A DNA stretch of 5,564 nucleotides. Origin: a virus (taxonomy: Duplodnaviria; Heunggongvirae; Uroviricota; Caudoviricetes). Both the position numbers and the translations under genes were made by a program. The stretch lies in IMG/VR virus record IMGVR_UViG_2711768034_000005. One strand, given 5' to 3'. The notes below the pieces were generated by a model. That model saw only the letters and a list, made by a program, of their open reading frames with translations. It was not told the origin of the DNA and did not search any database. Below are positions 1 through 5,564 of this stretch, piece by piece (position 1 is the stretch's first letter; every line of letters begins with the position of its first letter).

Positions 1-232
1 CCAGCTGGCGTTTGAGACGTGCAATCTCGGTAGACATCTCCAGTTCACGTTCAGAAGACGTCTGCTGATTTTGCTGTTTACTGCGCCAGTTGTAGAGTTG
101 TGATTCATACAGGCTGAGTTCACGGGCTGCGGCAGTAACACCGATGCGTTCAGCAAGCTTCAGGGCTTCACTGCGAAATTCAGGCGAATGCTGTTTACGG
201 GGTTTTTTACTGGTTGATACTGTTTTTGTCAT
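1..232 (-). CDS. insE: IS3 transposase OrfA (InsE-type HTH protein), N-terminal 77 codons; 3' end truncated by the window edge
   Basis: Minus-strand translation from the ATG at 230-232 gives MTKTVSTSKKPRKQHSPEFRSEALKLAERIGVTAAARELSLYESQLYNWRSKQQNQQTSSERELEMSTEIARLKRQLA, matching IS3 OrfA from memory. Not in the supplied ORF track because it runs off the window. Confidence 0.88.
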   Translation of the reverse strand, partial: MTKTVSTSKKPRKQHSPEFRSEALKLAERIGVTAAARELSLYESQLYNWRSKQQNQQTSSERELEMSTEIARLKRQL

Positions 233-257
233 GTGAGTCACCTCTGACTGAGAGTTT

Positions 258-297
258 ACTCACTTAGCCGCGTGTCCACTATTGCTGGGTAAGATCA
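258..297 (-). repeat. IS3 terminal inverted repeat (IRL), approximately 40 bp
   Basis: Terminal TGATCTTACCC... motif (minus strand) ending at 297. The inner boundary is approximate because the other end of the element is not in the window for comparison. Confidence 0.6.
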
Positions 298-446
298 TAC
301 CTCTTTCGCTCTCGTCAGAATTCCATCAAGATTAATTGCTAAAAAGCGTGCTAAAGAAAGAAGATCGTTATCGGCGAACGGGCCGATCACTCATGCAGGA
401 AGCATAGATCCTTTGAGCGGAGTTTCTGATATCTGAGGAGTGCGAA

Positions 447-1208
447 ATGCAATTGAGCAGCAGTGAACCTTGCGTGGTGATCCTGACCGAAAAAGAGGTA
501 GAGGTAAGCGTCAATAACCATGCTACGTTTACCCTTCCGAAAAACTACCTGGCCGCCTTCGCGTGCAACAATAACGTCATTGAACTCTCAACGTTAAATC
601 ACGTATTAATCACCCACATCAACCGTAACATCATCAACGATTATCTGTTGTTTTTAAATAAGAACTTAACCTGTGTAAAGCCCTGGTCGCGGCTGGCAAC
701 CCCGGTTATCGCTTGTCATAGCCGTACACCGGAAGTGTTCCGGCTAGCCGCCAACCACAGCAAGCAGCAACCCAGCAAACCCTGCGAAGCGGAGTTGACG
801 CGCGCATTACTTTTTACCGTATTGTCTAACTTTCTTGAGCAATCGCGGTTTATTGCCCTACTGATGTATATCTTACGCAGCAGCGTCCGCGACAGCGTCT
901 GCCGCATTATTCAAAGCGATATTCAGCATTACTGGAATCTGCGAATTGTCGCCAGTTCGCTATGTTTAAGCCCCAGCCTGCTCAAAAAGAAATTAAAAAA
1001 CGAAAATACCAGCTATAGCCAGATTGTCACAGAGTGTCGTATGCGTTACGCCGTACAGATGTTATTGATGGATAACAAAAATATCACTCAGGTGGCGCAA
1101 TTATGTGGCTATAGCAGCACGTCGTACTTTATCTCTGTTTTTAAGGCGTTTTACGGCCTGACACCGTTGAATTATCTCGCCAAACAGCGACAAAAAGTGA
1201 TGTGGTGA
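447..1208 (+). CDS. envY: AraC/XylS-family transcriptional regulator EnvY (porin thermoregulatory protein), 253 aa
   Basis: ORF 447..1208 with RBS GAGGAG at 435-440, 6 nt before the ATG. The C-terminal AraC-type HTH region (LSPSLLKKKLKNENTSYSQIVTECRMRYAVQMLLMDNKNITQVAQLCGYSSTSYFISVFKAFYGLTP) and the full-length sequence match E. coli EnvY as I recall it. Low GC. Confidence 0.88.
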   Translation: MQLSSSEPCVVILTEKEVEVSVNNHATFTLPKNYLAAFACNNNVIELSTLNHVLITHINRNIINDYLLFLNKNLTCVKPWSRLATPVIACHSRTPEVFRLAANHSKQQPSKPCEAELTRALLFTVLSNFLEQSRFIALLMYILRSSVRDSVCRIIQSDIQHYWNLRIVASSLCLSPSLLKKKLKNENTSYSQIVTECRMRYAVQMLLMDNKNITQVAQLCGYSSTSYFISVFKAFYGLTPLNYLAKQRQKVMW

Positions 1209-1253
1209 AGGGCAAAGCGGAAACGGATAAGACGGGCATAAATGAAGAAGAAA

Positions 1254-1298
1254 TGGCGCGCCCTGCAGGATTCGAACCTGCGGCCCACGACTTAGAAG
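1254..1298 (-). pseudogene. 3' fragment (about 45 nt) of tRNA-Arg(UCU) argU: prophage attachment-site core (attR), pauD-like tRNA pseudogene
   Basis: Reverse complement of 1254-1298 is CTTCTAAGTCGTGGGCCGCAGGTTCGAATCCTGCAGGGCGCGCCA, i.e. anticodon loop (UCU) through T-arm, acceptor 3' strand and CCA of argU. The sequence 5' of this (1299 onward) does not supply a D-arm or a complementary acceptor 5' strand, so it is a partial copy, not a functional tRNA. Confidence 0.85.
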
Positions 1299-1499
1299 TT
1301 CCTAGAACGACATTTTAAGTCAACAACTTACCGCGCCATCTCTGCGCTCACACGTCCCACTACCTCAAAACATGTAAAGCCTTGCAAGCCATTGTGAGGC
1401 CTTATGTGTCTCAGTTTTGTCCCTCTTTTTTGTACTAAAAAACATAGCAATTGAGGATAAACCTCATGCTATTTTCGCTTATATGCCTCTAAAGGCATA

Positions 1500-1720
1500 G
1501 CGCTTAAATAGATAAAAACACCACAAAAGCATAAAAAACCACACAGTAAAACCGCAATATAAAACAATAACAGATAATTAAACCAAAAACAGATAGCGCA
1601 TTGTGATAATCATTCAATACTAAACAAAATATAAACAGTGGAGCAATATGTAATTGACTCATTAAGTTAGATATAAAAAATACATATTCAATCATTAAAA
1701 CGATTGAATGGAGAACTTTT
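1500..1720 (+). promoter_or_regulatory. AT-rich ompT upstream region (promoter/leader) with RBS GGAG at 1710-1713
   Basis: Very AT-rich A-tract-rich sequence directly upstream of ompT; Shine-Dalgarno GGAG 7 nt before the ATG at 1721. The exact -35/-10 elements cannot be fixed from sequence alone. Confidence 0.4.
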
Positions 1721-2674
1721 ATGCGGGCGAAACTTCTGGGAATAGTCCTGACAACCCCTATTGCGATCAGCTCTTTTGCTTCTACCGAGACTATATCGTT
1801 TACTCCTGACAACATAAATGCGGACATTAGTTTTGGAACTCTGAGCGGAAAAACAAAAGAGCGTGTTTATCTAGCCGAAGAAGGAGGCCGAAAAGTCAGT
1901 CAACTCGACTGGAAATTCAATAACGCTGCAATTATTAAAGGTGCAATTAATTGGGATTTGATGCCCCAGATATCTATCGGGGCTGCTGGCTGGACAACTC
2001 TCGGCAGCCGAGGTGGCAATATGGTCGATCAGGACTGGATGGATTCCAGTAACCCCGGAACCTGGACGGATGAAAGTAGACACCCTGATACACAACTCAA
2101 TTATGCCAACGAATTCGATCTGAATATCAAAGGCTGGCTCCTCAACGAACCCAATTACCGCCTGGGACTCATGGCCGGATATCAGGAAAGCCGTTATAGC
2201 TTTACAGCCAGAGGTGGTTCCTATATCTACAGTTCTGAGGAGGGATTCAGAGATGATATCGGCTCCTTCCCGAATGGAGAAAGAGCAATCGGCTACAAAC
2301 AACGTTTTAAAATGCCCTACATTGGCTTGACTGGAAGTTATCGTTATGAAGATTTTGAACTCGGTGGCACATTTAAATACAGCGGCTGGGTGGAATCATC
2401 TGATAACGATGAACACTATGACCCGGGAAAAAGAATCACTTATCGCAGTAAGGTCAAAGACCAAAATTACTATTCTGTTGCAGTCAATGCAGGTTATTAC
2501 GTCACACCTAACACAAAAGTTTATGTTGAAGGCGCATGGAATCGGGTTACGAATAAAAAAGGTAATACTTCACTTTATGATCACAATAATAACACTTCAG
2601 ACTACAGCAAAAATGGAGCAGGTATAGAAAACTATAACTTCATCACTACTGCTGGTCTTAAGTACACATTTTAA
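1721..2674 (+). CDS. ompT: Outer-membrane protease OmpT (omptin, protease VII), 317 aa precursor
   Basis: ORF 1721..2674. N-terminal signal peptide MRAKLLGIVLTTPIAISSFA followed by STET.... Omptin catalytic residues are present at the expected places (precursor D103 and D105 in VDQDW; D230 and H232 in SDNDEHYD, equal to mature D83/D85/D210/H212). The full-length sequence matches E. coli OmpT from memory. Confidence 0.95.
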   Translation: MRAKLLGIVLTTPIAISSFASTETISFTPDNINADISFGTLSGKTKERVYLAEEGGRKVSQLDWKFNNAAIIKGAINWDLMPQISIGAAGWTTLGSRGGNMVDQDWMDSSNPGTWTDESRHPDTQLNYANEFDLNIKGWLLNEPNYRLGLMAGYQESRYSFTARGGSYIYSSEEGFRDDIGSFPNGERAIGYKQRFKMPYIGLTGSYRYEDFELGGTFKYSGWVESSDNDEHYDPGKRITYRSKVKDQNYYSVAVNAGYYVTPNTKVYVEGAWNRVTNKKGNTSLYDHNNNTSDYSKNGAGIENYNFITTAGLKYTF

Positions 2675-2690
2675 GAACGCCAACTAAAAT

Positions 2691-2720
2691 TTCCCCGAGG
2701 TGAAAATCGCCCCGGGGAAT
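2691..2720. terminator. Putative bidirectional hairpin terminator between convergent ompT and appY
   Basis: Imperfect inverted repeat TTCCCCGAGG ... CCCCGGGGAA (one mismatch, 9-nt loop) 17 nt after the ompT stop, flanked by AAAATTT on one side. The U-tract is weak on the plus strand and somewhat better on the minus strand (AUUUUA), so function is uncertain. Confidence 0.4.
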
Positions 2721-2922
2721 AACTAGCCATTTCAATGTAACAATTAACCCTTAAAATAAACCCAGAAGGTTATTAACTAAATCACATAGAAAACCATCAA
2801 TTATAGCATGTATAAAATAGGCGACAGCAACCCAATTACAAATTAATGGTTCCAGAATATCACATCAAAAAAACGCTGTATAATATTATAATTAACATGT
2901 AGACAACTTGTAATAAACATTA

Positions 2923-3672
2923 TCAGTCAATTGTTTTGTTTATTCCATCTGTGACGCCGATTATTTTCTCAAAATAATGAGATGGCGTGACACCATAATA
3001 ATCTTTAAATGCACATATGAAATATGAAGTACTGTTATAGCCACATTTCTGGGCTACGACATTGATAGAATAAGAGTTTGAAGTTATGAGTTTTTTTGCA
3101 TACCTCATCCTAGTATCTCTCAATATTTCAGTAAATGACGTTCCTTCATCCCTTAATCTTTTTTTTATTAAACTTTCACTCGTATAAATCAATTCCGCAA
3201 TATCTTTTAAATGCCATTGCCGCTCAATATTAAAACTGATTATTCCAGTAATTTTACAGGTAAATGTATTTATATTTGTTAGTATAAATGAATTTACACT
3301 TTCGCGTTTTTTGAACATGGCAAGTAAGGATATACATAGTCTTTCTTTTAACCAAAGGGAGTGTGAGTCTGCTATTTTAATCCCTTCAAACAGAGAAAAA
3401 ACAAGCGATAATGGAGGTTCCTCTTCAGCAATATAGCCATTCTTATCAAGAGTAAATTTGCCAGGCAGCTCATTATTCACGTCGATAAAAAAGGATAAAC
3501 ATGTTTTCTTATCTATATCAACAATTCTTAGTTTAGAGGGGCATACTGGTAACTCCCTTCTAATTTTGTCGCTTACAATAAACAATGAATTTTTTTTGAA
3601 CGAGATAACTCCCCTGTTTATAATTAAATCAAATGATTGACAGATGAAAACTACGGAGCAAACATAATCCAT
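2923..3672 (-). CDS. appY: AraC/XylS-family transcriptional regulator AppY, 249 aa
   Basis: ORF 2923..3672 (minus). The translation [56 protein letters not shown]... with a C-terminal AraC HTH ([19 protein letters not shown]) matches E. coli AppY from memory. Plausible RBS AGGTG 4 nt upstream of the ATG. Low GC. Confidence 0.92.
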
Positions 3673-4217
3673 CTTGCACCTATCATAAAATTAAAACAAG
3701 TTGATAGCAGTCAAATAACAACCAATTAAATACACAATCATAATCAGGATGATGTGCATTTATATTTTTATACACAAAATTATAGTTTGCAAATTTTAAT
3801 AAATTTCATTTAAGATTAAATTATTATATGTATATTGTTTTTTATTCTAACGTATTTCAAAGTTACATTTTTCAACGCTTACTATACTTTTTATTAACAT
3901 AAACTCACTACAACGCACCTGAAACCTCTTGCTATATATATGTCAACCGTTTGAATTTAAAATAAAAAGAGTATCATTTTTACTTGCATTTCTTATCAAG
4001 TCACATTCAACAACAGTAAAAAAACATTATTAGAACCATTCAATTAACAAAAAACCAACATCCAGCTTGCTTAATTTTTCTTTATTAAACGACATTGAAA
4101 ATCAATTGATAAAATACATCTAAACAACCTTTTGGGGCGCAAAAGCATAACATCAAACAAACAAATAACACACCGAAAAAACTCACAATTAATAACCTAT
4201 GATATACATACTGTTTA
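3673..4217 (-). promoter_or_regulatory. Long AT-rich upstream/leader region of appY (candidate promoter and nucleoid-protein-bound silencing region)
   Basis: About 545 bp of strongly AT-rich, A/T-tract-rich DNA with no ORF of 60 aa or more, lying between the tfa remnant and the appY start. Assignment as the appY control region is by position only. Confidence 0.4.
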
Positions 4218-4429
4218 TTATGGTTGAATAAGCCACTCGATATCTGGTGCTACGGAAGTGTCCACACGGTTTAGCAGCACCCGATACTTTTTTCAGGCTT
4301 CCAGCAACGATCTTTCTTCCTCCGTTGCGATTTCCAGATCTACAGCATCCTGCAGTGGCGCAATATACTCACTGAATTCCTGGATGTAGAACTGTGTGGT
4401 GACGGTCTTCCAGCCATTCGGCTCCTGCT
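4218..4429 (-). pseudogene. Tail fibre assembly protein (Tfa-like) C-terminal remnant with an in-frame stop; tfaX-like pseudogene
   Basis: Minus-strand frame ending at stop 4218-4220 translates ...[67 protein letters not shown]. The [19 protein letters not shown] motif is the conserved C-terminus of lambdoid Tfa proteins as I recall it. An in-frame TGA sits at 4293-4295. The upstream boundary is the junction with the FII fragment at about 4429/4430. Confidence 0.6.
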
Positions 4430-4495
4430 GTACCCGCGTATCGTTTCATCGGCGCAGGCAATGGCAGCATCGAACAGGTTATCGAAATCAGCCAC
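4430..4495 (-). pseudogene. Lambda FII-like head-tail joining gene, N-terminal 22 codons only (deletion-truncated)
   Basis: GTG at 4493-4495 (minus), 11 nt after the FI stop, with GGGAGG RBS; translation MADFDNLFDAAIACADETIRGY matches the start of lambda gpFII from memory, then homology ends abruptly at about 4430. Confidence 0.65.
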
Positions 4496-4506
4496 AGCGC
4501 CTCCCG

Positions 4507-4905
4507 TTATTGCATTCTGGCCAGGCCGCGCTCTGTCATTTCGGCTGCCACACCGGCAGAGACACGAAACGCCGTTCCCGGCAGCACAAATGCCACAGGT
4601 TCATCCCGCGTGGCGTGAAGTGCATCAGTATGCAGCTTCACCAGTGCCACGACCGTGACCAGTTCAGACGTATCCAGAATCACGGTATCCGGCTGCGCTG
4701 ATCCCACCTCATTTTCATGTCCGGTCAGCACATTTTCCCGGCTGAGAGGGGTGTCCTGACCGGCAGTTTCATCCGTGTCATCAAGCTCCTCTTCCAGCTC
4801 TGCCACACGGAGCGCCAGTTCTTCTTTCGTCCCCGTCAGGCTGACATCACGGTTCAGTTGTTCACCCAGCGAGCGGAGACGGGCAATCAGTTCATCTTTC
4901 GTCAT
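4507..4905 (-). CDS. Lambda FI-like DNA-packaging protein (gpFI), 132 aa, apparently intact
   Basis: MTKDELIARLRSLGEQLNRDVSLTGTKEELALRVAELEEELDDTDETAGQDTPLSRENVLTGHENEVGSAQPDTVILDTSELVTVVALVKLHTDALHATRDEPVAFVLPGTAFRVSAGVAAEMTERGLARMQ. Start ATG at 4903-4905 preceded by RBS GGAGGAG (4909-4915). The supplied 145-aa ORF (4507..4944) begins at an upstream in-frame ATG that lies in the E-FI spacer; I prefer the internal Met with the RBS. Confidence 0.82.
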   Translation of the reverse strand: MTKDELIARLRSLGEQLNRDVSLTGTKEELALRVAELEEELDDTDETAGQDTPLSRENVLTGHENEVGSAQPDTVILDTSELVTVVALVKLHTDALHATRDEPVAFVLPGTAFRVSAGVAAEMTERGLARMQ

Positions 4906-4946
4906 GGACTCCTCCACAGAGAAACAATGGCCCCGAAGGGCCATGA

Positions 4947-5043
4947 TTACGCCAGTTGTACGGACACGAACTCATCAGGGTCAGCCAGCAGCATCAGCGG
5001 TGCTGACTGAATCATGGTGAACTCACGCGCCGGATCCGCCAGA
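4947..5043 (-). pseudogene. Lambda E-like major capsid gene, C-terminal 31 codons plus stop (deletion remnant)
   Basis: Minus-strand frame LADPAREFTMIQSAPLMLLADPDEFVSVQLA* ends at stop 4947-4949, 41 nt upstream of the FI start. Position and spacing fit the E-FI arrangement of lambda-like phages; identity of the short fragment is by synteny plus partial recall. Confidence 0.6.
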
Positions 5044-5200
5044 TTTCGGCATACCATTTTATGACGGCGGCAGAGTCATAAAGCACCTCATTACCCTTGC
5101 CACCGCCTCGCAGAACGGGCATTCCCTGTTCCTGCCAGTTCTGAATGGTACGGATACTCGCACCGAAAATGTCAGCCAGCTGCTTTTTGTTGACTTCCAT
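5012..5200 (-). pseudogene. Terminase small subunit Nu1 (nohD-like), N-terminal 52 codons fused out of frame to the E remnant; truncated pseudogene
   Basis: ORF 5012..5200 translates MEVNKKQLADIFGASIRTIQNWQEQGMPVLRGGGKGNEVLYDSAAVIKWYAE, matching the lambda Nu1 N-terminus (winged-HTH DNA-binding domain), then IWRIRRVSSP* which is E-derived sequence read out of frame. Homology to Nu1 stops at about 5044. Confidence 0.85.
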
Positions 5201-5420
5201 TGTTCATTCCACGGCCAAAAACAGAGAAAGGAAACGACAAAGGCCCAAAAGCTCGTTTTCAGCACCTGTCGTTTCCTTTCTTTTCAGGGGGTATTTTAAA
5301 TAAAAACATTAAGTTACGACGAAGAAGAACGGAAACACCTTAAACCGGAAAATTTTCATAAATAGCAAAAACCCGCGAGGTCGCCGCCCCGTAACCTGTC
5401 GGATCGCCGGAAAGGACCCG
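5201..5420 (-). other. Lambda-type cohesive end site (cos): cosB 5201-5377, cosN 12-nt cohesive-end sequence 5378-5389, cosQ region about 5390-5420
   Basis: Reverse complement of 5371-5400 reads GACAGGTTACGGGGCGGCGACCTCGCGGGT, containing the lambda cohesive-end sequence GGGCGGCGACCT. The sequence between cosN and the Nu1 start closely matches the lambda cosB region (Nu1-binding R sites and IHF site) and 5390-5564 matches the lambda right-end sequence, all from memory. Confidence 0.82.
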
Positions 5421-5564
5421 CAAAATGATAATAATTATCATCTGCATGTCACAACGTGCATCTACGCCATCAAACCACGTCAAATAATCAATTATGACGC
5501 AGGTATCATATTAATTGATCTGCATCAACTTAACGTAAAAACAACTTCAGACAATACAAATCAG

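Follow-up and report, generated by a model that had tools for sequence, protein, structure and literature searches.

An IS3 insertion 149 bp upstream of envY in a small Escherichia coli lineage, probably near-neutral for envY and linked to one-sided loss of neighbouring genes

Introduction

Insertion sequences that land upstream of regulator genes can alter their expression, as in the IS1 and IS5 examples at bgl and flhDC, where the elements act as mobile promoters or by derepression. The DNA analysed here, a stretch of 5564 bp that we call the window, opens inside an IS3 element and continues into envY. The locus raises the question whether the element is a genuine insertion at this place, and what it does to envY and to its other neighbours.

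Both transcription units that flank such an insertion respond to temperature. The envY mRNA is up about nine-fold at 37 °C (PMC8544407), and the nfrBA-ybcH operon, which is weakly expressed and FliA-dependent, is about two-fold higher at that temperature (PMC8669469). NfrB and NfrA are required for infection by phage N4 (PMC8669469), and IS3 has been reported to generate adjacent deletions (PMC8860574).

Results

Identity of the element and layout of the window

Reverse-complemented, window positions 1–297 match the initial 297 bp of IS3C, as annotated in K-12, with zero mismatches, and the same stretch is 100% identical to the IS3 adjoining envY in 12 complete genomes. The IRL of the window element starts TGATCTTACCCAGC..., and alignment of IRL with IRR of the K-12 element gives an imperfect 40-bp repeat starting TGATC. 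The 77 codons of orfA run on the minus strand from 232 down to 2 and match PF01527 (HTH_Tnp_1; E 6.4e-10), so the transposase points away from envY, as the first-pass annotation had proposed. Relatives are annotated at this gene as 'IS3 family transposase, programmed frameshift'; the window does not reach orfB, the frameshift or IRR, the last of which is present in the relatives, where the full element measures 1258 bp. Identity to IS-free genomes, e.g. ATCC 8739, begins exactly at 298, and the preceding base is A in the window versus T in ATCC 8739. This homology break at 297/298 places the end of the element 149 bp before the envY ATG and, with the open reading frame at 447–1208, agrees with the earlier reading that the left inverted repeat ends at 297 and envY starts at 447. 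Sequence identity marks the element as IS3 itself, and so do all the family features open to checking: a terminal repeat of about 40 bp starting 5'-TG, an orfA helix-turn-helix and a 3-bp duplication, the last of these taken from relatives.

The features of the window are collected in Table 1. Up to 1298 it is identical to prophage-free strains and diverges from them thereafter, and the 45-nt argU fragment is the attR scar of a DLP12-like prophage. ARAGORN found no complete tRNA in the window. Within the prophage end, about 4945–5030 looks like the 3' end of the lambda E gene.

Table 1. Positions of the features recognised in the window.
Feature	Position	Strand	Basis or remark
IS3 left end	1-297	-	cut by window edge; 297/297 identical to K-12 IS3C
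IS3 IRL, about 40 bp, outermost base 297	258-297	-	IRL/IRR alignment of K-12 element and homology break at 297/298
IS3 orfA (insE), first 77 codons, ATG at 232-230	2-232	-	Pfam HTH_Tnp_1
TAC, right-hand copy of 3-bp target-site duplication	298-300		relatives with both flanks compared with IS-free genomes
Last 5 nt (TACCT) of 3' arm of hairpin after ybcH	298-302	+	remainder of hairpin beyond far side of IS3
Proximal 149 bp of native 182-bp ybcH-envY spacer, unchanged	298-446	+	genome comparison
envY, AraC/XylS-family regulator, intact, 253 aa	447-1208	+	ORF; Pfam HTH_AraC and HTH_18
tRNA-Arg argU 3' fragment, 45 nt, anticodon loop to CCA	1254-1298	-	window layout
ompT	1721-2674	+	window layout
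appY	2923-3672	-	window layout
Lambdoid prophage end, heavily deleted/decayed	4240-5400	n/a	tail-fibre-assembly remnant, FI, truncated Nu1, cos-like site
FI gene, complete	4510-4905	-	within lambdoid prophage end
Nu1, first 52 or so residues	5012-5200	-	within lambdoid prophage end
cos-like GGGCGGCGACCTCG	about 5375-5390	n/a	within lambdoid prophage end

Insertion site, target duplication and the split hairpin

The arrangement is not that of K-12, as had been noted from the sequence: in K-12 and ATCC 8739, ybcH stops 182 bp short of envY, both genes lying on one strand with IS-free DNA between them, which agrees with the description of clinical isolates (PMC6854850). The comparison of 298–446 with IS-free strains that the first-pass annotation had suggested puts the insertion point 36 bp past the ybcH stop codon and yields, from relatives, the target-site duplication. 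Relatives with both flanks read ...GGCTTAC, then IS3 (1258 bp), then TACCTC..., where IS-free strains have ...GGCTTACCTC... NT1F25, NCTC9008 and 214-4 are among the genomes in which TAC is duplicated around a complete IS3 of 1258 bp, and the 14 genomes with the left junction of this insertion show TAC on both sides of IS3. Because the far end of IS3 lies outside the window, the duplication and the left neighbour of the window element are deduced from these relatives; judged from sequence, the insertion is a plain transposition with the standard 3-bp duplication TAC.

In the IS-free sequence a 13-bp hairpin (−19.1 kcal/mol, z −3.0) starts 17 nt after the ybcH stop, and IS3 sits inside its 3' arm. 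In the carriers 12 bp of the hairpin survive on the ybcH side, after which IS3 sequence replaces the CUUUC of the tail (CUUUCGCU). The hairpin is stable and may or may not be an intrinsic terminator; its tail CUUUCGCU falls below the threshold of our terminator scan, which was at least 5 T in 8.

Spread of the insertion among E. coli genomes

The right junction, scored as window 1–1208 in one piece at an identity of at least 99.8%, occurs in 16 of 5426 complete E. coli genomes, and the left junction (ybcH-TAC next to IRR) in 14 of the same set. Six genomes have both (NCTC9008, 214-4, USMARC-51688, HN68, 300081 and 1297KP), so that 24 of the 5426 carry the same insertion, FDAARGOS_1277 and CREC_5, which look like one strain, being counted among them. 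The sources of the carriers are humans, pigs, cattle, ducks, a capybara and water; the genomes span several continents and different laboratories. No exact match to the 40-nt junction was found in genome contig or metagenome contig collections.

The window begins inside a repeat that has a median of 4 places per genome, as would be expected had a distant IS3 copy been joined to the envY region in assembly, a possibility that the first-pass annotation had named as fatal to its reading. The same base-exact right junction stands in 16 independently assembled complete genomes, which rules out an assembly collapse, and the matching left junction with TAC is found in 14; we give this artefact practically no credence. 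The junction is real and fairly old, and common to a small E. coli lineage.

HN68 carries the same IS3 at the same site in more divergent flanks (98.8% over window 1–2677; locus L026), and its alleles of EnvY, YbcH and OmpT differ from those of the window. Given these flanks, a single origin would require the segment with IS3 to have recombined between lineages; a possible alternative is that IS3 entered this TAC more than once. The IS3 copies among the carriers show 0–3 differences from K-12 IS3C, too few to settle single versus repeated insertion. A second, independent IS3 insertion in the same orientation lies 62 bp before the envY ATG and duplicates GAT (window 385–387); it occurs in four other genomes (1919D3, XYEH3934, AHM8C212RI and AHM8C160RI; locus L003, 5091–6348).

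The envY gene and its upstream spacer

EnvY of the window is the orthologue of K-12 b0566, with 252 of 253 residues identical (2 nt and 1 aa differ) and the same neighbours, and RefSeq gives the annotation EnvY to this DNA. It has the AraC-type double helix-turn-helix (PF00165 and PF12833). The spacer 298–446 differs from K-12 by 1 nt. At least 80% of it is covered in 4103 of the 5426 genomes, with an identity of 99% or more in almost every one, and it is 100% identical in thousands of IS-free genomes. Three things were moved 1261 bp off by the insertion: the 33 bp of spacer distal to envY, the hairpin, and nfrBA-ybcH. The earlier suggestion that native control elements of envY may have been removed or displaced thus holds in part: nothing was removed from 298–446, and displacement, which may or may not touch the envY promoter, is limited to the three items just named.

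A consensus scan found no sigma-70-like promoter with at least 9/12 matches in window 1–700, which includes the IS3 end and the junction, or in the IS-free spacer, and the terminator scan of the window and that spacer gave no hit either. A laxer scan gave best candidates of 7/12, which we do not trust; they include TTGCTA-18-GAAGAT at 336–365, present with or without the IS, and ATCATA-16-CAGAAT, the best candidate at the junction. The IS3 end itself is wild type in sequence and offers no outward or hybrid promoter at the 9/12 level. Fuqua and Wagner (2025) selected the 150-bp left and right ends of IS3 for mutagenesis on the ground that neither strand gave detectable promoter activity (PMC12095673). 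We infer that the left end of IS3 adds no outward promoter and that envY would retain whatever promoter lies in the 149-bp spacer. No mapped envY promoter or transcription start was found in the searchable literature.

An inverted repeat, ATCGGC-N6-GCCGAT, stands at 370–389, and the second IS3 insertion lands inside it. A regulator of envY may bind at this repeat, or the repeat may have no role at all. Its right half, GCCGATCA at 382–389, matches 7/8 positions of the sigma-28 −10 consensus. A FliA (sigma-28) promoter built on this half was rejected, the expected −35 (363–370, GATCGTTA) matching only 4/8.

Branch of the carrier lineage to which the window belongs

Window 1–4432 aligns collinearly at 99.8% with strain 300081, whose gene order is ybcH-IS3-envY-ompT-appY, and 4429–5563 is 100% identical to a part of the prophage in EC190486, another carrier. 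The join near 4429–4432 is absent from the 5426 complete E. coli genomes, and none of them contains the whole window end to end. Since the left part matches 300081 and the right part EC190486 with no full-length genome, the source has a private prophage deletion. PE15, at first sight a full-length match, was set aside because its record is rich in frameshifts and matches the window only piecemeal.

The window belongs to the prophage-bearing branch of the carrier lineage. The junction of ybcH with IS3 is kept in 8/8 of the prophage-bearing carriers examined, and all ten carriers that lost ybcH are without a prophage at argU. On this pattern ybcH-TAC is to be expected beyond the window's IS3, and a simple insertion with ybcH-TAC on the unseen far side is most likely and, in our estimate, probable.

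Deletions anchored at IS3

One neighbour of the insertion, nfrBA-ybcH or envY, has been lost in 18 of the 24 carriers. The deletion begins at the terminal base of a full-length IS3 in 17 of these 18; in NT1F25 the break is an IS1 38 bp from IS3, inserted after window 335, and envY is lost. On the IRR side six different endpoints were found (relatives L001, L006, L007 and L010–L015): two in nfrB only 3 bp apart, one just past cusS, and one each at IS5, an Rhs gene and a DcrB-like gene. In every IRR-side deletion nfrA and ybcH are gone, as is nfrB wholly or for the greater part, and ybcH is lost in 10 of the 16 genomes with the window's right junction. On the IRL side, one deletion takes out window 298 to about 734, and with it the spacer and some 96 codons at the start of envY; this was confirmed in four (L016, L017, L019 and L020) of the six genomes expected to share it, PEB21-38-A and 04A19CPO007 being the other two. 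A larger IRL-side deletion in EC190486 reaches into the prophage tail genes. The clearest consequence of the insertion is structural, namely the one-sided loss of a neighbour.

Carriers that keep the operon often have an internal stop in nfrA or a frameshift in nfrB (loci L005, L016, L018, L024, L025 and L026), and three genomes have a deletion that creates a vgrG'-nfrA' fusion. The Nfr system is decaying in the carrier lineage also by routes other than IS3.

Discussion

The explanation that we favour for the locus as a whole, and consider probable, is a simple and inherited IS3 insertion that is near-neutral for envY and seeds one-sided deletions. An IS3 copy would have transposed into the spacer between nfrBA-ybcH and envY, duplicating TAC and landing in the 3' arm of the hairpin after ybcH. 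The insertion would then have been inherited, possibly spread by recombination, in a small E. coli lineage, where it seeds one-sided deletions of its neighbours. Any direct effect on envY would be at most the lost read-through or far-upstream input from the ybcH side. Most likely envY has its own weak promoter inside the 149 bp and IS3 is close to neutral. As no recognisable promoter is present and the ends of IS3 were inactive in published assays, an effect on envY is unproven and probably small.

Expression of envY could nevertheless change if the gene relies on transcription running in from ybcH or on sites beyond −149, and IS3 may then have lowered or uncoupled it by cutting envY off from either. 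The 182-bp spacer without a recognisable sigma-70 promoter leaves room for such dependence on upstream transcription, some read-through is conceivable past a hairpin that has no good U-tract and falls short in the terminator scan, and both units are higher at 37 °C than at lower temperature (PMC8669469, PMC8544407); we regard a lowered envY as unlikely all the same. The opposite effect, activation of envY by an outward or hybrid promoter at the left end or by transcription through the element, seems very unlikely. IS elements including members of the IS3 family are known as mobile promoters, and point mutations readily make promoters in IS3 ends (PMC12095673), but the left end here is wild type and equal to that of K-12 IS3C, wild-type IS3 ends gave no detectable reporter activity in the same study, and the best junction candidate scores only 7/12. 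The second IS3 before envY in four genomes has the same orientation, but two insertions sharing one orientation carry no statistical weight.

A different doubt concerns the far side of the window's own IS3, which might mark a deletion, with nfrB', cusS, an Rhs or type VI secretion (T6SS) gene or an IS5 fragment next to it and nfrBA-ybcH lost. Such deletions, at six different endpoints, occur in ten of the 16 genomes that share the window's right junction; those ten are, however, prophage-free at argU, whereas the window carries a DLP12-like remnant, and ybcH stands beside IS3 in every prophage-bearing carrier examined. We hold a deletion here to be rather unlikely, if the least unlikely of the alternatives, and keep to a simple insertion with ybcH beyond it. 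It is tempting to explain the losses of nfrBA-ybcH by selection from N4-like phages. Several carriers, however, already have nfrA or nfrB as a pseudogene, and neutral decay of an operon that no longer works accounts for the losses just as well. The stronger proposal, that IS3 has been kept because it repeatedly deletes nfrBA-ybcH, which makes the receptor glycan system that phage N4 needs, and so offers a ready route to resistance, or that, instead or as well, it rewires the temperature control of envY, appears to us unlikely.

The insertion compares closely with known systems. K-12 IS3C (insE3/insF3, in prophage DLP12) shares the 297 bp, IRL and the start of orfA with the window, and K-12 IS3 and the element of the relatives are alike in their 1258 bp, programmed frameshift and 3-bp duplication; the sole difference between K-12 IS3C and the window's IS3 is location, K-12 being IS-free between ybcH and envY. 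The bgl and flhDC cases are alike in having an IS upstream of a transcription-factor gene, but differ in that the IS3 before envY delivers no recognisable promoter element. The adjacent deletions attributed to IS3 (Sekine et al., 1994, as cited in PMC8860574; Kanai et al., 2022) likewise run for varied lengths from one terminus of an intact IS3; as described in those accounts they arose on plasmids in the laboratory, whereas the present ones are natural chromosomal variants. In the carriers the deletions could result from intramolecular transposition, or from a second insertion followed by recombination between the copies.

Intergenic insertion of an IS and one-sided deletions anchored at it are textbook behaviour, and RefSeq already annotates the adjacency of IS3 and envY in 16 genomes. 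The insertion is real and now precisely mapped, but ordinary, a feature of an already known kind. At present it has little import for the biology of envY; it marks a lineage and makes the genome locally unstable. Strains with the same sequence over 298–1208, such as ATCC 8739 without and NCTC9008 with the IS, could serve as natural pairs for mapping the envY promoter, and phage could prove to be what drives the recurrent loss, anchored at IS3, of the N4 receptor operon.
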